From a virus (taxonomy: Duplodnaviria > Caudoviricetes), in IMG/VR virus record IMGVR_UViG_3300014204_000015, positions 9,386 through 73,385 of that record: DNA of 64,000 bases; one strand, written 5' to 3'. The notes below the pieces were generated by a model. That model saw only the letters and a list, made by a program, of their open reading frames with translations, was not told the origin of the DNA and made no database searches. This document shows positions 8,622 through 26,876 of this stretch, piece after piece. Every line of letters starts with the position of its first letter. Within the stretch, counting starts at the first letter, position 1. The position numbers and the translations under genes are program-made.

Positions 8622-9264
8622 GATCTAACTCCTTCATTATTCGGGATTGGGCTATCTCATAATATTCTCGGCTACGCTCCATCCCCACAAACCGCCTACC
8701 TAATCGCACTGCCGCAATCCCCGTCGAACCGCTTCCCATGTAGGGGTCGCAAACTAAATCCCCTGGTTTAGTATACTGGTTAATCAATATCTCCATTAGA
8801 GCCACTGGCTTCTGTGTGGGGTGTACCCGCCGTTCTCTTTGTTCTGACTCTTTAAGGCACCCCATCCACCTATGGGGTATCAATCGAGCAGCACCACCTA
8901 CGTTAGTCCATATCAATTCGCAGTCGGATTGATCGTTGAATCCCCACTCTCGCTTGCTTGTTAGTCCATTCAGTTTATCCCAGACTACCCAACCCCCAGA
9001 GACAGGTAGCCTAGGGGCAAAATAATTAGCTCCAAACAAGACCACTACGGGGTAGCCTAACAAGTGAGTAGGGTCAAACGGCTCTTGGTCTCCGATGATC
9101 AGAGGGTAATTATTACCTAGAGCCCCATTCCAATGAGGGCCTCTACCACTAGCCCTATAACTGGTATTGACTTTGATACCGTAAGGTGGGTCGCTGATGA
9201 TAGCCTTGATTCCCTTGATATGGGGTAATACCAGCTTACAATCACCACGGTAGAGTTTATACAT
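8614..9264 (-). CDS. DNA N6-adenine/N4-cytosine methyltransferase
   Basis: Catalytic DPPY, HPTQKPVALM, SAM-binding DPYMGSGSTG. Confidence 0.9.
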   Translation of the reverse strand: MYKLYRGDCKLVLPHIKGIKAIISDPPYGIKVNTSYRASGRGPHWNGALGNNYPLIIGDQEPFDPTHLLGYPVVVLFGANYFAPRLPVSGGWVVWDKLNGLTSKREWGFNDQSDCELIWTNVGGAARLIPHRWMGCLKESEQRERRVHPTQKPVALMEILINQYTKPGDLVCDPYMGSGSTGIAAVRLGRRFVGMERSREYYEIAQSRIMKELDHE

Positions 9265-9760
9265 TGGACAGACTCGCTAGTTTTCGATCACACTCCAAGA
9301 CCCTTGCTTGGAGGCCTTCCAGTCGTCGCCGCATACCTCGCAGATTCAGTTCCGCCGATTCCATTCTTAGCTTGTTATCCGTGTCCCTGTATCGCACCTT
9401 CTCGAAGAGGGGCAAAGACCTTTGAAGACCCCATTCCTCCAATGCTTGTATATGGACCTTTAGGCCTTCGGCTTCCTTCCAGTCCCGTAGCCTACGCTCT
9501 GTCCAATACTGGATCTTGAGCTGCGTGAGTTTCTTCTCATCCTCGGGGGGCGGTATCTCGGGGCCTTGATAGCTCGTTGTTGCATATCGCCAGCCGTCGG
9601 GGAAGAGCACGCGGGTATAGGCGGGGAACTTCGCGTCAACGTCCTCTAGTTCCACTGGAATCGGTTCTCCGTGGACCTTACAGAAGTTGTCGTAGTAGGC
9701 CTTCCAATCCAATACTGCTCGGTTGAGTTCAACCTCTACCAATTCACTACCGGGTATCAT
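9257..9760 (-). CDS. Hypothetical protein
   Basis: 167 aa ORF overlapping both neighbours in the operon. Confidence 0.6.
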   Translation of the reverse strand: MIPGSELVEVELNRAVLDWKAYYDNFCKVHGEPIPVELEDVDAKFPAYTRVLFPDGWRYATTSYQGPEIPPPEDEKKLTQLKIQYWTERRLRDWKEAEGLKVHIQALEEWGLQRSLPLFEKVRYRDTDNKLRMESAELNLRGMRRRLEGLQARVLECDRKLASLSNV

Positions 9761-14276: not shown

Positions 14277-15660
14277 TGCTTCGCTCCTTGACTACGCTAT
14301 TGTAAAGAACCTGTAAACGCTCGGTCAATCTCCAACGCTCCCCGCCTACCACTCCCTTCACGACGAGTTTGAAGGGTTCTACGACTCCGATTCGCTTGAG
14401 GAATAGAAGTAGCTTTCGGCACTCGGCCATTCCTAGCGATATCTCCCCCGATATTGTTTTGCTCTGTACTCCTGCCTCCCCACGAGCATCAATAGAGCGC
14501 ACTATGTCTAAGGTTCTCCCTCGGGCCGTATCCAGAGCCACTCGACGTACCCGATTCAAAACCTCCTCATCCACTTCGCTCTTATTGAATACAAACGCTA
14601 AGCACTTGGCTAACCTTACGTGCTGACTAACCAGTCGGGCCCCGAATTCCCTCTCAGCGTTCTCCTCCTGATGCTCCGACGGTCTTGCCCTTAGGTAAGC
14701 CACGAGTAGGCCCATCTGAACTATCGCCCGTTTGGCTGAGGTAGGTGTGTCAATCGCTTCGAGTCCCTTGGCAGCGTTCTGCCGTAGGTGATCAATATAC
14801 CCTCCAGTAAGGCTCATGGCCTTCGCCAACTCGGGCTCATATTGAGTCTCGGCTTTCCCGTTCGCCTCTATGGCTAGGTTCCGCTCGGCTCGGTTGACTA
14901 CCCGCCAAAGAATCTCCTCCTCCAAGTCGTAATCGATCTGTTCCATGATCACGCAATCTAGGAACCGTTCGCCTAGCTCCGACGAATCGATTGACCGGAG
15001 GGAAGAAGTCCCCGCGAGAATCCAGGTCATGCGCACGCCTTCATAGTCCCGGCTTATGGCGTTACGGTAGTGGGTCCGCGAAACCGAATCGTAGAGGTCG
15101 CGGGCCTCACTTAGTATTTGGCCCAGATTGGGAGATTGAAGAAGCGTATCACCGTCTTTGGTCACTAGGGTCTTTCCCCGTAGCTGGCTAATCAAAGACA
15201 CATCCCCGTCGTCTCCCCCACCTTCCATCTTGAAACCGCTATGGAATCCCCGAATCGTACTCTTGGCTAGTACATATTCGGTATTCACCGAAAGGGCTTC
15301 ACACAATGTCGATTTTCCACACGCTGCTGGGCCAATTACCTTAATCCAGAGTTGGTCGCCAATCGCCTTCGTAGAGGCTACCGCCGCCAACATCGTAGCA
15401 AGAGCGTGGTCTAGACCTTCTGTCCATCGTAGGGCTTTCCTCCAGGAGTTAATTAGCTCACGGTAGCTACAGCAGGGAGTAAGAGCTAGGCCGGGCCGAG
15501 AGGGACGGCTAGCAGGCGTTTTTACCCACTCCTCAGGCACGGGCTCTAGAAGGTCCAGCAGCTTCTTTAGCGCAAATAAACGCTGGGCTACGGTGCGTAG
15601 GTTTGATTCGGGAAGGGTATCGCTAGGAGCAATAGGCACGGTGACCTCCGGGAGCATCAA
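14269..15660 (-). CDS. AAA+ ATPase, putative replicative helicase (MCM/SF3-like)
   Basis: Walker A GPAACGKST, Walker B region TLVTKDG, sensor WILAGT, Arg-finger-like LGERF; downstream of primase. Confidence 0.7.
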   Translation of the reverse strand: MMLPEVTVPIAPSDTLPESNLRTVAQRLFALKKLLDLLEPVPEEWVKTPASRPSRPGLALTPCCSYRELINSWRKALRWTEGLDHALATMLAAVASTKAIGDQLWIKVIGPAACGKSTLCEALSVNTEYVLAKSTIRGFHSGFKMEGGGDDGDVSLISQLRGKTLVTKDGDTLLQSPNLGQILSEARDLYDSVSRTHYRNAISRDYEGVRMTWILAGTSSLRSIDSSELGERFLDCVIMEQIDYDLEEEILWRVVNRAERNLAIEANGKAETQYEPELAKAMSLTGGYIDHLRQNAAKGLEAIDTPTSAKRAIVQMGLLVAYLRARPSEHQEENAEREFGARLVSQHVRLAKCLAFVFNKSEVDEEVLNRVRRVALDTARGRTLDIVRSIDARGEAGVQSKTISGEISLGMAECRKLLLFLKRIGVVEPFKLVVKGVVGGERWRLTERLQVLYNSVVKERSNG

Positions 15661-15691
15661 GTAATCGTAGTGGAATCCCTAATTATAGGGG

Positions 15692-16204
15692 TCAAAACGG
15701 GGGTAGTGCCGACGCTCGAAGCCGTCCGTCACAAAAATCAAGCCAAAGGTCATGAGTCCCTTGCCGGATTATCTTGGAGGCAAATTGTATATCCCGTTTG
15801 CTCCAAGTACGGGCCGCTGGATGAGGCATATAAATTGTTCGGTATTCCAAATTCAGATTCCTTATCTGGTCATAGGTGCTTTGGGCTATTCGACCGCAAA
15901 CGAGTAGCAATTCAAACGGATACAACAGCAGTAGGTTCTCGCGGGTCCAATCGGTTTCGGGCTTGCCTTTATCTCGGGCAGACTTAACCAATTGAGGACA
16001 AGTATTCGTTACGAGTAAGTCAGAATGCCCTATGAGTTTGTAGAGCATCTTACCGCTCTTGTTCTCGGGGTTAATACGGAAGCATCGAGGGGCTTCAGCA
16101 AGGTAGTTAGGGTTGGCCATTGAGGTCTTCATTCGCCAATCCCACATCACATCGAGTAGTGCAACAACCTTAGTCACTGGAATTCCGGCCTTACGTATTA
16201 CCAT
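15692..16204 (-). CDS. Uracil-DNA-glycosylase-superfamily-like protein
   Basis: LLLVCGRIA and YMPHPAARTW resemble UDG-fold C-terminal motifs. Confidence 0.5.
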   Translation of the reverse strand: MVIRKAGIPVTKVVALLDVMWDWRMKTSMANPNYLAEAPRCFRINPENKSGKMLYKLIGHSDLLVTNTCPQLVKSARDKGKPETDWTRENLLLLYPFELLLVCGRIAQSTYDQIRNLNLEYRTIYMPHPAARTWSKRDIQFASKIIRQGTHDLWLDFCDGRLRASALPPF

Positions 16205-17085
16205 TGGCTTAGAACATCCCGTACATCGAAGCCTGACTTGAGTTTCGGATCGTAGTAGCTTTCGCCCCCACTACCCCAATGAAGGTAGTTAATGACTGCC
16301 GGAGGCTTAGAGTAGCTCGTAAGCAATCCCACTACCCGCCGTAGCCCCAAGAGGGCTCCTGGAGGAATGAGAGCCCCGGTGGTTTTGTTCAGGGCCGGAA
16401 GGTCGTTGTCGAACATTAAGTTGACTGTCTTCCCCGAGAAGAGGCTACACCACTGCTCGCGGAAAGAAGTACATCCCGGGATAGCAATCACGTTAGCCTC
16501 TGATAACATGTTACGGTTACTAGCCGTCTCCCGAGGCATACCGTTCTCGTCCCAACGCCCTCGCTTCATCGTCTCCCATAAGGCCATACCATCCCAGGGA
16601 CCCTCGCAAAGGTAGACGGTCGGCTTATCCGGGTCGTAGAGGCTCATCCCGAAGATACCATGAGGCAATCCGGTAGTGCCGAGGGGCCGCTTCTTCCCGC
16701 CCGCTCGAACATAGCGGTAGAGCTGGCGCACCTTCCCCGCCGTATTGTAGCCGGGAATCATCCAGCAATTACGGTAGGGAGAGTAACAACACCCCCACTC
16801 CATGATCGTATCGGGCATAAGCCCTCTATCAACCGCTAGAGAGTTGTAGTCAGAAGTACGGGAATCAAGAGACTCCCATAACTTCTCGATGAATACCTCT
16901 GCGTTACCTCCTCCCTTCTCGTTTCCGACGGCGCAAGAAAGACAACGGAACATGCCTTTCTTCTCGTTGACCGAGAACTTTGAACCGCCGCAGAATAGAC
17001 ATAATCCAACATGCTCTTCGCCGGATTGGGAATCGAAAGTAACACCTTGGCATAGGTAAGGGTCCAGTAGGGATTTCTCAGCCAT
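16198..17085 (-). CDS. DNA primase (Zn finger + TOPRIM)
   Basis: CLFCGG...FRCLSC zinc finger; TOPRIM VYLCEGPWDG and LMFDND. Confidence 0.85.
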   Translation of the reverse strand: MAEKSLLDPYLCQGVTFDSQSGEEHVGLCLFCGGSKFSVNEKKGMFRCLSCAVGNEKGGGNAEVFIEKLWESLDSRTSDYNSLAVDRGLMPDTIMEWGCCYSPYRNCWMIPGYNTAGKVRQLYRYVRAGGKKRPLGTTGLPHGIFGMSLYDPDKPTVYLCEGPWDGMALWETMKRGRWDENGMPRETASNRNMLSEANVIAIPGCTSFREQWCSLFSGKTVNLMFDNDLPALNKTTGALIPPGALLGLRRVVGLLTSYSKPPAVINYLHWGSGGESYYDPKLKSGFDVRDVLSQW

Positions 17086-17596: not shown

Positions 17597-18022
17597 TTAG
17601 TCAATATGCTTCCAGGTTTTTCGTCGAACAATTGCACTAATAAGAGTTTGGTTTACGCCATACTCGTCAGCGAGTCGTTGTTGAGAATACTTTCTGGGCT
17701 TATATTTCCTCCTAATGGTCTTGATGTCTTCGCTGGTTAGTTTAGCCATTGGCTGACTTTCGCCCTTGAGTGAACGGCCTTTAGCAACCATGTCGTCCAT
17801 ATTATCCTGGAGAGTACCCAAGAACCCCTCTGGTATGGGTCCGAAGTGTATCTCCCAACTAATACGGTGGGCCAAATACTCTCCACTGCTTACGGATAGC
17901 ATACCATAGTCACAGGCCCCGTGATTAGAATCAAACAACCAGCACCCATCGACCTGTTTCTTAACTTTAGCCCAAAATCTTATGTCTCTGGATTTTGGAG
18001 GTCTTCCCCGGCTAGTACCCAT
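17597..18022 (-). pseudogene. HNH homing endonuclease with in-frame deletion of the catalytic core
   Basis: RFWAKV...GCWLF...AHRISWEIHFGPIPEG joined directly to FLGTLQDNMDDMVAKGR; the CH-x-CDNP-x-CVNP-x-HL core present in the 28365 paralog is absent. Confidence 0.7.
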
Positions 18023-18581
18023 ACCTAACCTCCCAGAAAACAGTGTTATGACCGGGGACAGTTCCCCAACAAGTCGAAAACGCAGAGAACTCAACGACAT
18101 GGCCAGGATACTCCTCCAGGAGATACTCTAGCCATTGATAGCTTAGGTCATTCATCGACCGTTGAACTAATAGTTTAGCCGCTAGGCCCCGGAGGCTTAT
18201 AGGCCGCTTCCGTAAGGCCTTTCGCATCGGCATACTCCAGCAGTTCCGGGCTCCATAGAACTCCCAGCCCCAAACACCCTCCATGACTTCACCTTGGAGT
18301 ACATTAAGGTGGTGGGGGGCCATTGCGCTGATGTAGACCTTCTCCCCGAGGGACTGCGCGGCGTACCACTTGACGGGTACCTTCTTATGACAAACGTCGT
18401 ACCACGTAGGCCCTCCTGCCCGACGGTTACGGATATGGTAGCGTTGATCCAGGCCCATACGTAACCAGGGCCTATCCTCTAGCCACTCATCGAGGGTATT
18501 CCAAGTAGGAGAGTGATTACCGAATTCAGAGGCTTTGTACCGCAACACGAAGTCTCGCTTTGATAGTACCGGCTCATGCAT
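18012..18581 (-). CDS. Hypothetical protein in the base-modification operon
   Basis: Start placed at MHEPVL (RBS GGGAGG), coupled to the stop of the dUMP hydroxymethylase gene. Confidence 0.6.
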   Translation of the reverse strand: MHEPVLSKRDFVLRYKASEFGNHSPTWNTLDEWLEDRPWLRMGLDQRYHIRNRRAGGPTWYDVCHKKVPVKWYAAQSLGEKVYISAMAPHHLNVLQGEVMEGVWGWEFYGARNCWSMPMRKALRKRPISLRGLAAKLLVQRSMNDLSYQWLEYLLEEYPGHVVEFSAFSTCWGTVPGHNTVFWEVRYGY

Positions 18582-19689
18582 TCTTGACCTCCCACTTAGC
18601 TTGACGACGGGTAATCCATTGACGGCAAGCCATTCGCCAATCACTCGCGTGAATGGACTCTACCCACTTGAGAGCCTCTTGATAGCTCCGCTCCTTGTGA
18701 GCTCGAAAAGCCAAGGCCATCGGAAGGGCTACGTTGGGAAAGAACGGATTGCTCCAAACAGTAGGGAGTAAGTCGTTCAAACCGTTCCCGTAGCCTAGAT
18801 GAACAAACATATTGCATTCGACGTCAAAGCGGTCAGGGTCAAGCACCATCGGGTAGGGGTAAACATTGTCGCGGTACTCTCGATTGTAAGTAGCTTCTAG
18901 CCACTTCGCTGGTGTCCACCGTTCCGTGTAAACGTGAAGGTTGTTCGTGAATTGGTAGTATCTCCCGACGGATACCCCAATTCGGGCTGCGAGATACTCC
19001 TGGAGAACGGAGAAGTGAACGACGTTTGCCCCAAGCATCCCCCAGATCATGTCATTGGATCGGTTACACACCGTCATGTCGAGAAACTTGGTGTAGACGG
19101 CCGTGCCTTGTTCTGAGAATCCGTCGGGCTCTATGGTGAGGGCCTCTCTAATGGCGAAGTAGGCCTGTGTATTACATGGCACATCCTTCCCGCCGTTGAC
19201 GGCTTTGTAGGGGTCGCTCCAATTGGATCCATTAGTAAGCAGGCCAGGGTGAGGAGGTTCTACAGTAGCATCCCACATCTGGAGCACTACCCGTCGGCTA
19301 GTTGGGGTTTTCTTGAGTTCCTCTACGATAGCATCGAGTTGATCGTAGCCGAACCACTTGCGCCAACGGTAGCCGTAGGCTCCGTGGAACACTTCTTGGT
19401 CGTCGCTGAACTCCGTCATCTTGGAGTTATACCAAGCCAGAGGGGTCACATCTCGACGGCCTGCGAGCATCCAGAGGGCTTCGTACAGGTGGAAGAACGG
19501 GTTGCAGTCCCGGGCTTCATTGAACAAAACCCGCTCACACGGATTCCGGTAGGTGACCAAAACCGGCTCGGTGATCTGAATCACATCCCCGTATCGGCTT
19601 GGTGTTTTCCGGGTAGGGAGGAGGCCGTTGTGAAGGTCTTTAACAAGGCCATAGAATGCGTCATTCACGTTCCGATAAGAGGCTTCCAT
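18574..19689 (-). CDS. Thymidylate-synthase-family enzyme, probable dUMP hydroxymethylase
   Basis: YGYRW, RRVVLQMWD, DVPCN, RSNDMIWGMLGANVVHF (Asn kept, consistent with dUMP specificity), NNLHVY; gene neighbourhood. Confidence 0.85.
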   Translation of the reverse strand: MEASYRNVNDAFYGLVKDLHNGLLPTRKTPSRYGDVIQITEPVLVTYRNPCERVLFNEARDCNPFFHLYEALWMLAGRRDVTPLAWYNSKMTEFSDDQEVFHGAYGYRWRKWFGYDQLDAIVEELKKTPTSRRVVLQMWDATVEPPHPGLLTNGSNWSDPYKAVNGGKDVPCNTQAYFAIREALTIEPDGFSEQGTAVYTKFLDMTVCNRSNDMIWGMLGANVVHFSVLQEYLAARIGVSVGRYYQFTNNLHVYTERWTPAKWLEATYNREYRDNVYPYPMVLDPDRFDVECNMFVHLGYGNGLNDLLPTVWSNPFFPNVALPMALAFRAHKERSYQEALKWVESIHASDWRMACRQWITRRQAKWEVKNA

Positions 19690-19785
19690 TGAGATTCTCC
19701 GAAAATAGTTGCCGACGTAAAGTGTTGCCGTATACCCTATTATAAATACCCCGGAAAATTCTTGAAAATTTTCCCAATCTCCCTC

Positions 19786-19814
19786 TTGACTTTAGCCGAT
19801 ACCTGGTATAGATT
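19786..19814 (+). promoter_or_regulatory. Sigma70-type promoter of the histone-like gene
   Basis: TTGACT-N17-TAGATT. Confidence 0.65.
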
Positions 19815-19867
19815 AGTCGTAGCGGTTGGGGAGGCCCCGACCGAAGAAACCTTTTAGGAGCGAAACG

Positions 19868-20341
19868 ATGAAAGCTGTTGAGACCACCGACGTAGCCGAA
19901 ACCGAAGTTGCCGCCCCCAAGGCCCCCAAGGCCAAGAAGGCTTCCGCCCAAAAGGCCATGGCCGACGCTGCGAAGGCCGCGAAGGCGAAGGCAGCGAAGA
20001 AGGCCCCGGTCAAGAAGGCTCCCGCTGCGAAGGCCGAGAAGGTTCCCGCCGCGAAGAAAGACGGGTTGCGCAAGCCGCAACTCCGCATCCTCCAGGCTCT
20101 CGCCTCTACCAAAGCCGTCGGCATGACCCGGGGCGAGATTGCCGCGAAGGCCCCGGTTGACGTAGCCGGTTGCACCGAGTGGATCGGCTCCAGCGATGCG
20201 GCGAAGAGGGCCGCGAACGACGCCAAGCACTTCCCGTCCCTGATCACGCTCGGTTTCGTCAAGTTGGGTACTCCTGCCGAGGGCGGGGCCGACTACTACT
20301 CCATCACCGCTGCCGGCCGCAAAGAGGCCGCGAAGGGCTAA
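19868..20341 (+). CDS. Lys/Ala-rich histone-H1-like DNA-binding protein with C-terminal globular domain
   Basis: KAPKAKKASAQKA...KKAPVKKAPAAK; AGGAGCGAA RBS; the only plus-strand gene in this operon. Confidence 0.75.
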   Translation: MKAVETTDVAETEVAAPKAPKAKKASAQKAMADAAKAAKAKAAKKAPVKKAPAAKAEKVPAAKKDGLRKPQLRILQALASTKAVGMTRGEIAAKAPVDVAGCTEWIGSSDAAKRAANDAKHFPSLITLGFVKLGTPAEGGADYYSITAAGRKEAAKG

Positions 20342-20367
20342 CCCGCCGCCGTCAATCCCGTCTCCCT

Positions 20368-20392
20368 AGAGCCGCTCAATGCGGCTCTTTTC
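20368..20392 (+). terminator. Intrinsic terminator
   Basis: AGAGCCGC-TCAAT-GCGGCTCT followed by a T run, between convergent genes. Confidence 0.7.
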
Positions 20393-20933
20393 GTTGGTAG
20401 ATGGCCGTAGAGGCCGCGTGGTGCTCTCGGGCCCACCCAGCTAGCCGGTAGCCCTCTACGTCGAACTCATCCCAATAGGCATTCAAATCGGGTTCTTCTA
20501 GGCCGTAGCTCCGATAATTCAAGTGTAGCTTCGAGCAAGCTACGTCGGTGAAGATCAACCACTGGCATTTGACAATCGCTAGGGCCTCTTCCAATTCCTT
20601 CCGCTTGAGGGTAGTCAGTGTGTTGAAATCGGCTACCAATAGGTCAACCCGGTAGCCCCGCTTACTCCCATCGAACATCCCACAATACACATTCGTCAGC
20701 GAGTCCCGGAAGGCCGTGTTGTACGTCGATGGATCGGCTTCGTAGCCCGTGATCGCAACCTTGGGGTATCTCCTCCGTAGCTCTTTGGCCCATCCACCTA
20801 GGCCGTAGCGGATGTCTAGAACCGTCTTGGGAGTCTTCGGCAGTAACTCCAAGCAGCCAGCGAAGGCCTTAACATTCTTCGCTAGGTCTTTGCTTCGGAT
20901 GAGTATGGCGGGGGTGCTTGAATTCATGGTCAT
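20376..20933 (-). CDS. Class I SAM-dependent methyltransferase-like protein
   Basis: VLDIRYGLGGWA (motif I-like), ITGYEAD (motif II), VDLLVADF. Confidence 0.6.
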   Translation of the reverse strand: MTMNSSTPAILIRSKDLAKNVKAFAGCLELLPKTPKTVLDIRYGLGGWAKELRRRYPKVAITGYEADPSTYNTAFRDSLTNVYCGMFDGSKRGYRVDLLVADFNTLTTLKRKELEEALAIVKCQWLIFTDVACSKLHLNYRSYGLEEPDLNAYWDEFDVEGYRLAGWAREHHAASTAIYQRKEPH

Positions 20934-20937
20934 GAGT

Positions 20938-21768
20938 TTACCCTATGTTCCAGAAGAGGGTTGCGCCTTTCCATTCTCGACGGCTACGTAGCCACCATTG
21001 AAAGGCTTTGAGGTCGTAATATTCGTTGCAAGGCCAAGGGGGTTTCTCGGCTCCCTTGGCTTTGTCTTTGTAGCTATACTTCTCGTCAACTACGGCTACA
21101 AATAAGCCACTTATCCCCGTCTTATCTCGCAGGTACCTTAACACCTGATCATGAGAGCGGGAGTAACCTAGGTGGATGATAAACGTAGGCCGTACTATCC
21201 AAGGGTACTTAGCCAAAAAACCAGCGATAACTCCCGCCGCAATCGTGCCACTACTGGCCGGGATAATCACTTGATCGAACCGTCGGCTAGCCGGTACTTC
21301 CTTGGCTGTCTCAACTACCGACTCCTCCAGCTTGAGGGCGTTAGGCATCATGTAGCCACCCAACTCCTCCATACGCTTCTTAGCGGCGTGGTAAAGAATA
21401 CAGGACCGCCCAGCCGGAAGTCCTGCCAGCTCGGCCCCTAGGCTCTGAGCCTTTAGTTGAGGTTCCCTCATGGCCCAATCGTGCTTGTAGACCGGGTAAA
21501 AGTCGATGCACTTCTTCCCGAGAATCTGGCAGGCTCGGGCTACGGCCCACCCGGCTTGGCTATGGTACGTGTCGAGGGCCCCGATAATCCTTTCGGGCCG
21601 AGACTTGACCCGGGCGTACACTCCCCGGGTCTTACTGAACGGAGGGCCGGGGAACGGGCAGGCTAAGTCTTCTCGCTTCACCCAAAGACCGTACTCCTCC
21701 CGGTAATCCTCCACGGGGGTACCTTCCCGGAGCATGCCTTCGGCTACGATCCGCCCTAATTTGCTCAC
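20938..21768 (-). CDS. PLP-dependent enzyme (fold type II), thymidine-hypermodification decarboxylase-like
   Basis: WVKREDL...FSKTRG (Schiff-base Lys), IIPASSGTIAAGV, TLFWNIG. Confidence 0.8.
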   Translation of the reverse strand: MSKLGRIVAEGMLREGTPVEDYREEYGLWVKREDLACPFPGPPFSKTRGVYARVKSRPERIIGALDTYHSQAGWAVARACQILGKKCIDFYPVYKHDWAMREPQLKAQSLGAELAGLPAGRSCILYHAAKKRMEELGGYMMPNALKLEESVVETAKEVPASRRFDQVIIPASSGTIAAGVIAGFLAKYPWIVRPTFIIHLGYSRSHDQVLRYLRDKTGISGLFVAVVDEKYSYKDKAKGAEKPPWPCNEYYDLKAFQWWLRSRREWKGATLFWNIG

Positions 21769-22587
21769 CTACACACCTCCCTTCACGTTCTGAAGCCCCC
21801 GAAGCACCGCCCTAGTAACCGGGCAGCCTTCGTAGCGGCGCAATCCTAGGCCTATCTCGTGCGTATCCTTGCCGAGAGGGTAGTGCCCCCCTAGGTGAGA
21901 CTTCCACTTGCAGAATATCGTCTCCGTCTCTTGGACATTCAGAGGCCGGTCATAGAGCGGGGGAGCCCGCCGCTTACCCATCGCCCGAAGAACGAATTGG
22001 TGGGCTAACGTCATACGGTTTAGGGGTGACTCGATGAAGGGTATGAGCCGATATTGTTCGCAAGTAGCCATAGCCCCTTTCTTGGAGCTATCGAACATAT
22101 GTACCAGCTCATCTTCGGTGAACTCGACGAAGGCTATCCCTAGCCGGTCAATCATATCGGGCACTTTCCACTTGACCCATTCCCCGAAGCCGTAGAGGTT
22201 CTTCACTCTAGCCATCATAACCGCAGCCGTCGGCTTACCATCCAAGAGGTAATCCATCAACTGAGTAGGCTCGGGAAAGGTAGCCCGCAACCGTCGAATC
22301 GACTCGATGGCTAGGGCCCCTCGGAAGTGCCGACGTTCTGTCCCTCGGGGGTAGTCAGTACCGCCTAGGGCTATGGTAGTCATCGTGGACCAGAACTTCT
22401 TCGGGCCCTTACCCACTATCCAACAAGCTAGTCCTGCGTGGTAGTAGCACCAATAGGCTATCAGCCAACGGATAAGGGTAGGCCGGTCCATACCCGAATG
22501 AAGCAGGGCTACGTACAACGGGTCAAGGTCTTCAGAGTCAAGTAGCTTCCGCCCAAACTCGACAATACCCATCGGTTCAAATACCAC
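21769..22587 (-). CDS. Amino acid:DNA transferase (aG/PT-pyrophosphorylase family)
   Basis: DLDPLY...WLIAYWCYYHAG...RGTERRHFRG...GFGEWVKWKVPDM...ETIFCKWKSH. Confidence 0.8.
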   Translation of the reverse strand: MVFEPMGIVEFGRKLLDSEDLDPLYVALLHSGMDRPTLIRWLIAYWCYYHAGLACWIVGKGPKKFWSTMTTIALGGTDYPRGTERRHFRGALAIESIRRLRATFPEPTQLMDYLLDGKPTAAVMMARVKNLYGFGEWVKWKVPDMIDRLGIAFVEFTEDELVHMFDSSKKGAMATCEQYRLIPFIESPLNRMTLAHQFVLRAMGKRRAPPLYDRPLNVQETETIFCKWKSHLGGHYPLGKDTHEIGLGLRRYEGCPVTRAVLRGLQNVKGGV

Positions 22588-24901
22588 GGAACATCTCCTT
22601 GCGGAAGTCGGCCATGGTGAGGGCTCGGGCCTCTCCCGCGAGAGTATCCCCGCAGCGTGGCTGCCCGCCGTTCTCTGACGCGCAATAGAGGCATCCTGAC
22701 GGTGGGCAAGAGGATAGGGGCCTGAACCGTTTACCGGAGCGTATGTACACCGGGACGGCGTGCCCGTGGCATTGAGCGGAGGTCGTAACCTCCCGGCCGA
22801 TACTCACACCGGTTTTGTCGATGATCTCCCCGGCTTCGTTTCGCTCATAACGGTACTCATAACAGACCGAGTAGGTCAAGCCTAGCCGCTTGGCTTCGGC
22901 TGCGTAGAGGTCGTGAGCCTGTAGCCGGTACTCCTCCACGATGGTTCGTTGTCCACCAATGTTTTCCTGGAAGAGAGAAGCGAAGGCCAAGCCACGATCA
23001 CCGAACCGCTTGATCATTCTCTCGACCATCGCGGGGGCCCAAGAGTAACCGGCCTCAACAAACTTCACGATGACGTGGTCGGCTCCAGCCTTCCGTAGCC
23101 GTCGGAACAACTCGATGATCTGCTCGTTGCTGGTTACCCCTGCGACAACCGGATTGACTTGGATTGAGACGTAGATGCCATGCTTCTTGAGCCGTCGAAT
23201 ATCTGCGAAGTGACCTTCCAAGTCCATCGCCCCGGGGGATAGCTTCTGCCAATCCTCCTGCGACGGTGTGTTGATAGACTTCTGCGCGTAGCTATGGGGG
23301 TTCTTCTTCAAGAGGTCGATAGCCCAAGCAGGGTATTTCAACCGGCTGAGGAAGAAGATAGGCAACCCAACCTCAACGCACGCCTCCGCAGCCGACTGGC
23401 TATTGTGATAAATCTCCTCCAGGGGCAAGAATGGGTCCGTGAATGATGAGAAGTAGACCGCCGCCCCTCGCTGGACCGTAGCCAACATCCCTCGCACCTG
23501 CTCCCCGTAATTCATCGGGACGGTAATGAGGCCAGTCCCACGGTACCCGCGAAACCCCGAGTTCACGTAGCAATTGTGGACTAAGATACCTTGATGGTAG
23601 AAATTACCCGTTTCCGTTTCGATGTCGTAGACCCGAACTTTGCCTTGAACTCGGGTGATTTTCTCGACATAAGGATACCTAATCTTTCTAGGGTCTTTTG
23701 ATCGAATACGATTATTCGATAGCCTAAACTCCTGGCCAGTCGAATTTTCTCGCGGTCTGCTTCGGAAAAATACCCCTTGACTTCTACGTAAGCCCCGTGG
23801 GGTTGTAGTTTGAAATCTGGTAAGTAGGCCGAACCATTCGGCAACGAAATAGCCAAGGGCTCGTAATCCCAATCGTACCCAGCTTTCTCGAAGTATTGGG
23901 CTGTCAATACTTCCCAAGTTGACCTCATGCGAAATGTTCGGCCCTTGCGGTCGGTGAAAGCTTGACGCTTGGATAGTCGAAACCCCGATATCCCGTTGCG
24001 GACAGCTTCGGCTCTTGCCAATCGAAAAGCCGGCGATTTCGGACCCTTGGCCCGCTGAGACATACTGTCTCGATGGGCTAGGGCGTGAGCACTCATCCTG
24101 GCCCGCGTCACCGCCGATTTGGGTTTGCCTTTGAGAACTGAAGATTTTCCCCGACATAATTTGCCGTTCGCAGACCGTACTTTCAGCAAGCAAGAGTCGC
24201 ACACTAGCCGATTCTGAGGGATTGTGTTTTGGCAATCTCGACATTGAGGCATCTTCTAACTCCTCGCCATATTGTAAACTTTCAGCCGAAACCCAGCCCC
24301 GGCTTCTTGAATATACTGGGTGATCTCCCGTCATTTGTAACTCTCGGCCGTCGGATAAGGTAATGACTACTAGTCCTTCAGGTTTCCAGTGACTACTAGT
24401 ACCTAATACCCTAACCGCTCTTCTATCTTCAATGGTACGTCCGTAGACCCAATCACCTACCTGAAATTGATCAATAGGCTTTGGTCCACTAGGGGTATCT
24501 ACCATCCCCCCTTTTGGCAAAGAAAAGGCGCAGCCAACCATACACCAGCCACCGTAAGGCTCAGTCAATATCGCTTCGGTGAAACAGGGACGGGGCCGTG
24601 TACCCTTCGGCTCGTGGAGGCCTTTGTACCAACCCTGAAGTGGCTTGGCCTTCTCGATGCGCGTATGCGGGTAGGGCTCCAGGTAGGCCTTGACAACCTT
24701 GCGGTTCTCCTCCTTGGCGTTACGGGTCATCCCAATCTTGAGGCTACGCACCTTCACCTTCCGGCCAAACACCTCATCGTACTCTAGCCGAATTGGGCCG
24801 AGATTCTCGCGGGGCTCGGGCCGCATGAAGAAATTATAGTTGGTAGCCGCTGTGTTGTCGTCGTCTCCGACGGTCTGAATCGTAATCCAACTCTGAGACA
24901 T
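22577..24901 (-). CDS. Radical SAM enzyme with an intein in the CxxxCxxC motif
   Basis: EPYGGWCMVGCAF-[intein]-CYVN; start placed at MSQSW with RBS GGAGG. Confidence 0.85.
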   Translation of the reverse strand: MSQSWITIQTVGDDDNTAATNYNFFMRPEPRENLGPIRLEYDEVFGRKVKVRSLKIGMTRNAKEENRKVVKAYLEPYPHTRIEKAKPLQGWYKGLHEPKGTRPRPCFTEAILTEPYGGWCMVGCAFSLPKGGMVDTPSGPKPIDQFQVGDWVYGRTIEDRRAVRVLGTSSHWKPEGLVVITLSDGRELQMTGDHPVYSRSRGWVSAESLQYGEELEDASMSRLPKHNPSESASVRLLLAESTVCERQIMSGKIFSSQRQTQIGGDAGQDECSRPSPSRQYVSAGQGSEIAGFSIGKSRSCPQRDIGVSTIQASSFHRPQGPNISHEVNLGSIDSPILRESWVRLGLRALGYFVAEWFGLLTRFQTTTPRGLRRSQGVFFRSRPRENSTGQEFRLSNNRIRSKDPRKIRYPYVEKITRVQGKVRVYDIETETGNFYHQGILVHNCYVNSGFRGYRGTGLITVPMNYGEQVRGMLATVQRGAAVYFSSFTDPFLPLEEIYHNSQSAAEACVEVGLPIFFLSRLKYPAWAIDLLKKNPHSYAQKSINTPSQEDWQKLSPGAMDLEGHFADIRRLKKHGIYVSIQVNPVVAGVTSNEQIIELFRRLRKAGADHVIVKFVEAGYSWAPAMVERMIKRFGDRGLAFASLFQENIGGQRTIVEEYRLQAHDLYAAEAKRLGLTYSVCYEYRYERNEAGEIIDKTGVSIGREVTTSAQCHGHAVPVYIRSGKRFRPLSSCPPSGCLYCASENGGQPRCGDTLAGEARALTMADFRKEMFRGI
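23573..24523 (-). mobile_element. Intein, 317 aa
   Basis: N-terminus SLPKGGMVDTPSG, block B TGDHPVY, C-terminus VYDIETETGNFYHQGILVHN followed by +1 Cys. Confidence 0.9.
23581..24252 (-). CDS. NUMOD3-like + PD-(D/E)XK endonuclease encoded out of frame inside the intein
   Basis: MRSTWE...YEP...YLPDF...VEVKG; GAGGAG 7 nt upstream of ATG; N-terminal CxxC...CxxC. Confidence 0.8.
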   Translation of the reverse strand: MPQCRDCQNTIPQNRLVCDSCLLKVRSANGKLCRGKSSVLKGKPKSAVTRARMSAHALAHRDSMSQRAKGPKSPAFRLARAEAVRNGISGFRLSKRQAFTDRKGRTFRMRSTWEVLTAQYFEKAGYDWDYEPLAISLPNGSAYLPDFKLQPHGAYVEVKGYFSEADREKIRLARSLGYRIIVFDQKTLERLGILMSRKSPEFKAKFGSTTSKRKRVISTIKVS

Positions 24902-24909
24902 AGCACCTC

Positions 24910-25446
24910 CTACGCGTGCAGCTGTAGTAACTTGAGAATAGTCCCGGGAGCCTGACGGGCACTTACCCGTCGGCAATCGACTCCCAGAGCTAACAATTTT
25001 ACCCGCGAACGCTCGATGACCGCTACCCGGTTCCGAGTATTCGCTTCATTGAGGGGCTTTTCGTTGCCGGCTTCCTCCCGACGTTTCTTGATCTGAGCAA
25101 TACACTGCTCGACGGGCGTAGTCAAGTACAGTACGTGAACGTCGTCCAACTGGGAGGTCCACTTCACATCTTCGGAGAGCAGTAGCCCTTCGCAGAGGAT
25201 ATGAGAGCATTGAGGCAATACCATTTGGATTACCTCAAAGACCTGACGAGCACTACCGATGTTATCACATCCTCCACAGGTAGCCTCATAGTGACCTAGA
25301 ACAGTTGTCATCCCGTAGTGATACCATAATGGATTCTTCCTACCTCGGGTGAAAACCTCTAGGGTACGTTCTCCCAGGGCCCTCATCACCTCCCGCATCA
25401 CCCAGGTCTTACCTGAGCCGCTGGTTCCGCGTACTTGGACAATCAT
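24910..25446 (-). CDS. P-loop nucleotide kinase of base-hypermodification clusters
   Basis: MIVQVRGTSGSGKT, ILCEGLL; RBS GGAGG before ATG 25446. Confidence 0.8.
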   Translation of the reverse strand: MIVQVRGTSGSGKTWVMREVMRALGERTLEVFTRGRKNPLWYHYGMTTVLGHYEATCGGCDNIGSARQVFEVIQMVLPQCSHILCEGLLLSEDVKWTSQLDDVHVLYLTTPVEQCIAQIKKRREEAGNEKPLNEANTRNRVAVIERSRVKLLALGVDCRRVSARQAPGTILKLLQLHA

Positions 25447-25463
25447 AGGTTCCTCCAATGAAA

Positions 25464-25702
25464 GGTGGAGAGTCGGCATACTCGTTCTCGGTTACAACAT
25501 GACGGTCGCCAGCTCTCCGCCATCATTTCTAGTAAAGGTGGAGGACGGCATACCCCTAATCGGTTACATTTGGGCATTCGCCGGTCCTCCACTATTGTAT
25601 TAAGCTATCCATTCCCGGGGTCGGTTACAAGGAAAGAATCAGATAGCTATTGATTTGGGCCTAGTAAATTCATACTCGGTTACATGCGGGTTCTCACTAG
25701 GC
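25464..25702 (-). ncRNA. TIGR-like stem-loop guide array, downstream block (4 units)
   Basis: Four units stem-YGA-N9-TGTAACCGA-N9-TG/TA-stem; loop repeats at 25488, 25560, 25621, 25676. Confidence 0.85.
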
Positions 25703-26635
25703 TTTGTACGGTTGGAATGGAGTATTAGTCCATTCGAGCCAGAGGTTCTTGAGGATTAACTTGGTAGCGAGCAACATCCCATGCTTGTGGGCGTGGCCGC
25801 ATTTCTCCCCGATACCTCCGCACGTTAGGCATTTCTTCTTGGCATGGTTCTTACCCTTACATTTGTCGCAGGGCTTCCACTCCCACTCTGGGTGAGTCTG
25901 CCGGGCTCGAATCTTCGCTTCAAGCCAACGGCTACGGTAGATGCCAGAACCGTTCTGCTTGATAAGGTTCTCCCCGATGATGTAGGACACGCTACGTCGG
26001 CGGGGAGGATAACCAAAGTTGGTCCAATCTTCGGCCGTTAGCTTCTGGAGGCCCTTCTTGTTACCTGCTCGGCTTTTCCAAGAGGCCCCCATCAGGGTTT
26101 CCTCCCCCTTCGTAAATGGAGCACACCCTAGCCGTTTCCAAACCTTCGCGGGATTGGGGTAGTTATTCAAGTCACCCGTCTCCCCAATAATGACGGCTAG
26201 GGACATCAGGCCGAATCCGGCTTGATTGGGCTCAGCTACCCAAGAGGCCACCGGAAGAGTCTTGACCAGGGCTAGCATTTCCTTCTCAAAGATATCCTGT
26301 TGGGTATCGTAGCCATCGACGGCTATGTTAGTCGTGAGGATGATGCTTCGTAGAGGATGCTGTTCCCCGTCAATAACCCCCTTAATTATTCCGGTGGCCT
26401 CCTTGAACAGCTTGAGGCGGTCTGCCTCCTTGAGCCCGCTACTATAGCCGAGAGTCCCAGCCACGGTAGCTTGGAGCCGATTGGCTATCATGATTCGGCT
26501 CTTGATGACCCACGCCCTCTGCCGTTGGAGGGCTTGTAGTTCCGCCGACACCTCAGCTACGTTACATTCGCTCCTTCGGTTACAATATGGAACTCGTTTA
26601 GCTGAGGATGTCGGCTTCTGTTTCTTCTTAGCCAT
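25697..26635 (-). CDS. tasA: Nop/IS110-C-terminal-domain protein without a nuclease domain (TasA-like)
   Basis: Coiled coil LQALQRQRAWVIKSRIMIANRL; GFGLMSLAVIIGETGDLNNYPNPAKVWKRLGCAP; GHAHKHG...KLILKNLWLEW; flanked by the arrays. Confidence 0.75.
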   Translation of the reverse strand: MAKKKQKPTSSAKRVPYCNRRSECNVAEVSAELQALQRQRAWVIKSRIMIANRLQATVAGTLGYSSGLKEADRLKLFKEATGIIKGVIDGEQHPLRSIILTTNIAVDGYDTQQDIFEKEMLALVKTLPVASWVAEPNQAGFGLMSLAVIIGETGDLNNYPNPAKVWKRLGCAPFTKGEETLMGASWKSRAGNKKGLQKLTAEDWTNFGYPPRRRSVSYIIGENLIKQNGSGIYRSRWLEAKIRARQTHPEWEWKPCDKCKGKNHAKKKCLTCGGIGEKCGHAHKHGMLLATKLILKNLWLEWTNTPFQPYKA

Positions 26636-26867
26636 TTGACTCTCCTAGTTAGAAAATACTAGCAGTACCTCGATCGGTTACAAAGACCTTATCGCTAGTA
26701 GTTGTTTTGGGCTACCCAACGTTCTATTCGGTTACACGCAGTTTATCAGGTAGCAGTAGTTTGATGCGCCACGGGCATCCTCGGTTGCAAGACGATATTC
26801 GGCGCATGATGTTTTGAAAGCCTACCCAATGCCCATGATCGGTTACACCTCTTCGCTCAGGTAGGCT
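26551..26867 (-). ncRNA. TIGR-like stem-loop guide array, upstream block (5 units, one inside the Tas CDS)
   Basis: Loop repeats at 26576, 26674, 26728, 26781 (TGCAACCGA variant), 26839; each unit closed by its own inverted repeat. Confidence 0.85.
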
Positions 26868-26876
26868 AATGGATTG

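Follow-up and report, generated by a model that had tools for sequence, protein, structure and literature searches.

Which step does a small gene directly downstream of a PLP enzyme gene add to a phage pathway for DNA base hypermodification? The gene, hereafter MT, lies in a 64,000-nucleotide stretch of a Caudoviricetes genome (IMG/VR record IMGVR_UViG_3300014204_000015), which is referred to in full as the window. A first-pass annotation had read it as an additional SAM methyltransferase that would methylate the amine exposed by the PLP step. We examined the gene and its neighbours, the fold and motifs of its product, the occurrence of the family and its linkage to hypermodification genes, and weighed which acceptor atom fits these observations.

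The MT gene and the cluster around it

MT is part of a run of minus-strand genes that meets a convergent plus-strand gene. The features of this region, in window positions, are the following.

18012-18644, minus strand: 210-aa ORF directly downstream of the thymidylate-synthase-like gene, without Pfam or PHROG match
18574-19689, minus strand: thymidylate-synthase-family (TS-like) enzyme, candidate dUMP hydroxymethylase supplying 5-hmdU
19826-20341, plus strand: convergent Lys/Ala-rich gene (171 aa), without Pfam or PHROG match
20368-20388, plus strand: terminator-like hairpin followed by a T-run, serving the convergent plus-strand gene
20376-20933, minus strand: MT, predicted class I SAM methyltransferase of 185 aa with an ATG start
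20938-21768, minus strand: PLP-dependent enzyme of the PALP fold (Pfam E 1.3e-8; PHROG 7093, E 3.7e-64)
21769-22587, minus strand: amino acid:DNA transferase (AADT; Pfam PF18724), 37% identical to the glycine:DNA transferase gp51 of phage M6
22577-24976, minus strand: radical SAM (rSAM) enzyme (PHROG 9252, E 1e-176) with an intein at about residues 158-468
23581-24252, minus strand: 223-aa ORF inside the intein region, in another frame
24910-25479, minus strand: P-loop kinase, candidate 5-hmdU DNA kinase, 29% identical to M6 gp54
27487-28380, minus strand: HMUDK_hel domain protein (Pfam PF18723, E 5.5e-51)

The closest known system is the 5-NedU pathway of Pseudomonas phage M6, which comprises the AADT gp51, the PLP decarboxylase gp52, the rSAM isomerase gp53 and the 5-HMUDK gp54, and whose enzymes convert 5-hmdU in vitro via 5-PmdU, Nalpha-GlyT and Calpha-GlyT to 5-(2-aminoethyl)-dU (Lee et al., NAR 2021, PMC8989533). 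Homologs of all M6 enzymes are present in the window, together with the HMUDK_hel protein and the TS-like hydroxymethylase, and the cluster genes are homologous to M6 gp51-gp55 and gp58. The genes for the TS-like hydroxymethylase, kinase, AADT, rSAM and PLP enzymes all lie at 18574-28380 on one strand, an arrangement of M6 type. The PLP enzyme is 46% identical to the Calpha-GlyT decarboxylase gp52 over 96% of its length, and the C-extein of the rSAM enzyme is 60% identical to the isomerase gp53. These homologs of the M6 PLP, AADT and rSAM enzymes bear out the pathway context that had been described for the locus. The M6 cluster differs in that it has no MT and its final base is an unmethylated primary amine, whereas the window encodes one extra enzyme; the window rSAM gene also differs in carrying an intein.

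This intein splits the cluster-binding motif of the rSAM enzyme, with an N-extein that ends in C-M-V-G-C-A-F and a C-extein that begins with Cys. Splicing would rebuild a CxxxCxxC motif resembling the CTVGCAFC of M6 gp53 (PMC8989533), and the +1 nucleophile of the intein would thus become the third iron-sulfur ligand. Relatives carry inteins in the TS gene instead of the rSAM gene. The 210-aa ORF at 18012-18644 is kept at the same place in the related loci L006-L008 (42-48% identity). Elsewhere in the window, at about 8638-9276 (minus strand), we found a homolog (29% identity, E 4e-21) of the Pfam-annotated N6_N4_Mtase gene of the related contig L017, which we assign by this homology to a separate, conventional N6_N4-type DNA methyltransferase of the same phage.

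The stop codon of the PLP enzyme gene (TAA, 20938-20940) and the MT start codon (ATG, 20933-20931) are separated by a spacer of 4 nt (20934-20937), exactly the distance given in the first-pass annotation. In most homologs the start falls where the window protein has its third codon, likewise an ATG (20927-20925), and the gene may thus begin 6 nt further in. We count the ORF as a genuine gene and not as a chance frame because a word-indexed search returned 54 homologs at E <= 1e-3, mostly between 1e-26 and 1e-59; all of them are metagenomic. The hairpin at 20368-20388 overlaps the final codons of MT, which therefore closes the leftward gene run. The convergent Lys/Ala-rich gene beyond it is a conserved neighbour of MT in the PLP-MT gene order. 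In 13 other MT-positive loci, this gene always lies just downstream of MT on the opposite strand and shows 44-63% identity over the C-terminal ~90 residues.

Fold and motifs of the predicted methyltransferase

By sequence, the window protein gave a weak signal, a Methyltransf_23 match at E 0.0017 that is below the Pfam cut-off, and it had no PHROG match. FtsJ was matched by 10 of 29 relatives (best E 5.6e-7), and others matched Methyltransf_25, Methyltransf_23 or MraW. The AlphaFold2 model, built on 29 homologs (mean pLDDT 93.6, pTM 0.90), has the alternating beta/alpha pattern of a Rossmann methyltransferase and the seven-stranded alpha/beta fold of these enzymes. A structure search of 48,161 PDB representatives, independent of Foldseek, returned 454 chains at Z >= 8, and all of the best 50 of these 454 are class I methyltransferases or enzymes sharing that fold. 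HEMK2 was the best match (Z 13.6, rmsd 2.9 A over 151 residues), followed by PrmA (Z 13.5), MppJ (13.4), the RsmD-like Rv2966c (13.3) and the small, related chain 2esr (13.3). Foldseek gave at least 500 matches in the PDB, with E <= 0.001 for all 500 counted; among the matches listed, nearly all are methyltransferases, and essentially methyltransferases were also returned by Foldseek against BFVD and by a search of the ESM Atlas. With a profile of the wider family, the best PDB matches were KsgA N6,N6-dimethyltransferases (E 1e-5), and amino-sugar N,N-dimethyltransferases were among the next (E about 1e-3). WD40 proteins, which had topped the first PDB profile search (E 1e-8), were rejected as an artefact of many sub-threshold repeats with no significant single domain, and they vanished when the PDB was searched with the wider-family profile.

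The cofactor-binding elements of a class I enzyme are recognizable in the alignment. Motif I of the core family is D40-x-R-Y-G44-x-G46 (D40-I-R-Y-G44-L-G46 in the window), with D40, G44 and G46 invariant and an Arg in place of the first glycine; the wider family has the classic E-x-F-G-G-x-G, and we scored the motif as a glycine-rich motif I of the (D/E)-x-G-x-G-x-G type. The acidic residue that ends strand 2, which binds the SAM ribose in class I enzymes, is present as E65, invariant in 29 sequences at the end of the predicted strand 60-65 and aligned in the wider family with a D within a D-L-D consensus. Motif IV after strand 4 reads D102-F-N104-x-x-T107, varies little or not at all in the core family and is retained as D-F-N-x-x-T in the wider one. 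With motif I, E65 and motif IV conserved, the cofactor site looks intact. T129-D130, K135-L-H137-L-N139, Y143 and Y153 are also conserved, and the wider alignment has a family-specific block TD(S/V)A..(K/Y)LHLN plus two invariant tyrosines. A conserved acidic and polar pocket lined by D102, N104, D130, H137, N139, Y143 and Y153 would suit ammonium binding and deprotonation. The fold is unambiguous, and together with the motifs it agrees with the original description of a compact methyltransferase-like protein; we predict with high confidence that the MT product is an active SAM methyltransferase.

Two established classes were considered for the family and rejected. The window protein has no FtsJ/RrmJ (PF01728) match at E <= 0.1, and the K-D-K-E tetrad of that class is not conserved: the N-terminal helix has no conserved Lys, with D16 and N20 conserved there instead, and much of the wider family has Tyr in place of K135. 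FtsJ enzymes are 2'-O-ribose methyltransferases, and DNA has no 2'-OH. Membership in the DNA amino-methyltransferases (N6-adenine/N4-cytosine) was rejected on a motif IV that reads D-F-N, with no (D/N/S)PP(Y/F/W), and on the missing target-recognition domain; neither the window protein nor its relatives gave an N6_N4_Mtase Pfam match. The 185-aa protein is, in the model, a bare catalytic core with no added target-recognition domain, and the family has pI values of 5.6-9.7, about half of its members not being basic, unlike typical DNA-binding enzymes. The 397-aa sequence P0148 was discarded as an informative fusion; its SBP_bac_5 fragment lies on a 1.9-kb contig and probably stems from a chimeric assembly or gene call.

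MT resembles the small amino-directed enzymes RsmD, HemK/HEMK2, PrmA, KsgA and the DesVI/TylM1 type in fold (Z 13.3-13.6, rmsd about 3 A, 142-152 residues), in the FxGxG-type motif I of the wider family, in the acidic residue after strand 4 and in profile matches at E 1e-5 to 1e-3. It differs from them in sequence (11-18% identity), in motif IV (D-F-N versus (D/N)PP(Y/F)) and in the TD(S/V)A..(K/Y)LHLN..Y block, which is unique to the MT family, and these enzymes have other substrates. Several methyl groups are placed on one nitrogen by PrmA, KsgA and the amino-sugar enzymes. The nearest structural relatives of the model lean toward nitrogen-directed methyltransferases; O- and C-methyltransferases are within one Z unit of the N-methyltransferases, and the fold thus leaves the acceptor atom unfixed.

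Occurrence, linkage and dispensability of the family

A profile search of 1.84 billion representatives yielded 281 MT clusters at E <= 1e-3, of which 40 were at E <= 1e-30. No cellular homologs were detected in a pattern scan of 185,579 prokaryote species, each represented by one genome. Among 50,697 GenBank phage records, the single member is gp39 of Pseudanabaena phage Pam3 (ON014755.1, 30603-31229; annotated as hypothetical protein), which scores 196 bits against the family HMM. A tblastn search of GenBank phages with the window protein gave no match; this blank is a limit of sensitivity, since it took a small database, the family HMM and a distant query to reveal Pam3 gp39. Pam3 gp39 belongs to the same superfamily, is 39% identical to the metagenomic member P0127 and lies 2.4 kb upstream of the Pam3 PLP/rSAM/AADT cluster, but it shares only about 24% identity with the window protein and does not adjoin the PLP gene. 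A keyword search of two Pam3 genome papers returned no mention of DNA hypermodification. The family HMM detected no member in the M6 cluster, and none were found in cultured phages of the PaMx11, ViI, SP10 or PhiW-14 type. The family is phage-only in these data. The claim that MT is an addition to the characterised pathways is upheld by the M6 cluster, which has no member, and by Pam3 as the sole case among GenBank phages.

Linkage was assessed in 41 MT-positive loci with 32 distinct MT sequences, 22 of which loci have at least 3 kb on each side. All 22 well-flanked loci have a PLP homolog within 6 kb of MT, directly adjoining it in 16 of the 22, and the PLP gene is the most constant neighbour of MT across MT-positive loci. 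AADT and rSAM genes share the contig with MT. An rSAM gene was detected by tblastn within 6 kb in 19 of the 22. Of the three exceptions, L109 has a Pfam-called Radical_SAM gene adjoining MT, and L026 is overlapped by locus L069 of the same contig, in which an rSAM gene adjoins MT; on the contig of L102, the rSAM and AADT genes are about 10 kb off and MT is still beside the PLP gene. On this split cluster (IMGVR_UViG_3300017991_000299; L102, L107 and L108), the rSAM and AADT genes lie at about 12-14.6 kb and the MT-PLP pair at about 25-26.7 kb, among RecA/UvsX-like, gp32-like, terminase-like and glycosyltransferase genes. Locus L109, which has a distant MT relative beside the rSAM gene and a PLP gene nearby, also encodes at 14386-16953 (plus strand) an A-family DNA polymerase fused to a UDG domain, a fusion type recently tied to T-modified genomes (PMC13697223).

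The MT-positive loci show at least seven gene orders: rSAM-AADT-PLP-MT, as in the window; AADT-PLP-MT-rSAM, in which some contigs keep the exact M6 order with MT inserted between PLP and rSAM; rSAM-MT-HNH-AADT-PLP; AADT-MT-PLP; rSAM-x-MT-kinase; MT-AADT-PLP; and MT-PLP alone. MT is consequently not always next to the PLP gene, some orders placing it beside the rSAM, kinase or AADT gene. Distant relatives (profile E 1e-12 to 1e-29, about 25-30% identity) stay in the same clusters. Co-occurrence of homologs with AADT/rSAM/PLP clusters, which the first-pass annotation had proposed as a check, was strong and extended down to about 25% identity. A linkage that survives both gene shuffling and sequence divergence is strong evidence that MT works in the hypermodification pathway, and on these genomic grounds we consider a role in the M6-type pathway very probable. 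Gene linkage speaks for pathway membership and says nothing on the order of steps.

MT is an optional component of these clusters. In an unbiased IMG/VR survey seeded with the PLP enzyme, 14 of 80 loci carry MT, and 8 of 42 among those with at least 4 kb on each side, where an MT-negative locus is one with no MT within 4-8 kb of the PLP gene. In a quick tree of PLP enzymes, MT-positive clusters are intermixed with MT-negative ones, and well-supported branches force at least seven gains or losses; this tree was enriched for MT-positive loci by design, the unbiased frequency being that of the PLP-seeded survey. Two indels between near-identical genomes, which in both pairs means roughly 80-85% identity, involve MT only: 707 bp in L100 correspond to 14 bp in L096, and 826 bp in L080 to 94 bp in L078. 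The core pathway is complete without MT, as phage M6 shows experimentally by making unmethylated 5-NedU (PMC8989533). Clean loss of MT from near-identical genomes is easier to reconcile with a terminal decoration than with an essential intermediate step.

The acceptor and the place of MT in the pathway

The likely place of MT is narrowed by the chemistry of its neighbour. PLP decarboxylases need a free primary alpha-amine, which forms the external aldimine, and a free carboxylate, and the PLP step exposes the side-chain amine. Any methylation of the amine must therefore come after the PLP step, and earlier methylation of the glycyl nitrogen or esterification of the carboxylate would stall the pathway. 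We propose that the kinase would convert 5-hmdU to 5-PmdU, from which the AADT would form Nalpha-GlyT with glycine; the rSAM isomerase would yield Calpha-GlyT and the PLP decarboxylase 5-(2-aminoethyl)-dU. MT would act last, after the PLP step and on DNA, as an optional tailoring enzyme that flips out the modified base and moves one or more SAM methyls onto the exposed primary amine. This would yield N-methyl-, N,N-dimethyl- or N,N,N-trimethyl-aminoethyl-uracil, and the benefit may be escape from host defences that recognise the unmethylated amine.

DNA as the substrate, the amine as the acceptor and the number of methyl groups are what we infer. Because MT is dispensable and PLP chemistry requires a free primary amine, we somewhat favour the reading that MT N-methylates the decarboxylated amine, that is, 5-(2-aminoethyl)uracil in DNA; its motif IV, D-F-N and not the (D/N/S)PP(Y/F) of classical amino-methyltransferases, points against it. 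The broader proposition, that MT-positive phages including this phage and the cyanophage Pam3 carry N-methylated 5-(2-aminoethyl)uracil as an undescribed base, made by a new family of DNA-side-chain N-methyltransferases, we regard as evenly balanced. A quaternary trimethylammonio-ethyl product, which would make a permanently cationic, choline-like base, is a rather improbable special case.

If the amine is the acceptor, the best functional analogy is gp48 of PaMx11, an acetyltransferase shown experimentally to convert 5-NmdU to 5-AcNmdU (PMC8989533), as both enzymes would carry out terminal tailoring of an amine exposed by the preceding step. They differ in fold and donor, GNAT with acetyl-CoA in gp48 versus a Rossmann fold with SAM in MT, and in the upstream step, an FAD lyase in PaMx11 versus the rSAM and PLP enzymes in the window; the activity of gp48 is experimental, whereas that of MT is predicted.

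MT could instead work in the pathway on another atom or intermediate, such as the Nalpha-GlyT secondary amine, the Calpha-GlyT carboxylate (which would become a methyl ester), a carbon of the side chain or a ring atom of the modified uracil. The strict cluster linkage fits such an activity equally well, C-/O-methyltransferases such as MppJ, MrsA, BchU and BioC are within one Z unit, and MT adjoins the rSAM and not the PLP gene in several gene orders. We nevertheless consider it unlikely: PLP and rSAM genes are kept in every MT-positive cluster, alpha-amine methylation or esterification ahead of the PLP step would block aldimine formation or decarboxylation, and the clean losses described above are better suited to a decoration added at the end.

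Still less probable is that MT is an ordinary nucleic-acid or protein methyltransferase, acting on DNA against restriction or on host rRNA or tRNA, and linked to the cluster only by shared expression timing. Its closest matches do include the rRNA, tRNA or protein enzymes KsgA, RsmD-like, FtsJ, PrmA and HEMK2, and the absence of an extra target-recognition domain would suit such a role. The association with PLP and rSAM genes, however, persists through at least seven rearrangements, in a split cluster and among sequences diverged to about 25% identity, and members are absent from the cultured phages of PaMx11, ViI, SP10 and PhiW-14 type and from the 185,579 prokaryote species genomes. The FtsJ K-D-K-E tetrad and a DPPY motif are not conserved, and the separate N6_N4-type homolog near 8638-9276 weakens the reading of MT as an anti-restriction methylase, since the phage would already have a conventional DNA methyltransferase.

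Least probable of all is a methyltransferase fold put to another use, be it as rSAM accessory or scaffold, as 3-amino-3-carboxypropyl or other alkyl transferase, or as RdmB-like decarboxylase/hydroxylase: the fold matches include RdmB, the nocardicin 3-amino-3-carboxypropyl transferase, Tyw2 and spermidine synthase, and the cluster already uses SAM through its rSAM enzyme, but MT has kept its cofactor motifs, the invariant D/N/H/Y residues that follow strands 4 and 5 resemble a catalytic pocket, close relatives can dispense with MT, and in vitro neither M6 gp53 nor the remainder of the M6 pathway needs such a partner (PMC8989533).

Returning to N-methylation of the exposed amine, a search of the pathway papers of 2018 and 2021, the structural paper of 2024 and a set of later papers on thymidine hypermodification found neither a methyltransferase in this pathway nor a methylated aminoethyl-uracil, Iyer et al. 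2013 lying outside this scope. MT represents an uncharacterised enzyme family that probably makes a methylated DNA base so far undescribed. To our knowledge, the characterised thymidine hypermodifications terminate in an amine, either free or acetylated, or in a polyamine or amino-acid adduct. SAM-dependent methylation of the side chain, if true, would add a new chemical step and a new natural DNA base, and MT would be a new enzyme family acting on a non-canonical base within DNA. The idea is directly testable, as there is a member in the cultured phage Pam3 and the presumed substrate is available in the form of M6 DNA. Such an enzyme could also become a tool with which DNA that bears amines is alkylated in a site-directed manner. 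For the phages themselves, gain and loss of MT as a single cassette between near-identical genomes suggests arms-race selection, and nucleases or glycosylases that recognise the primary amine may be its source.
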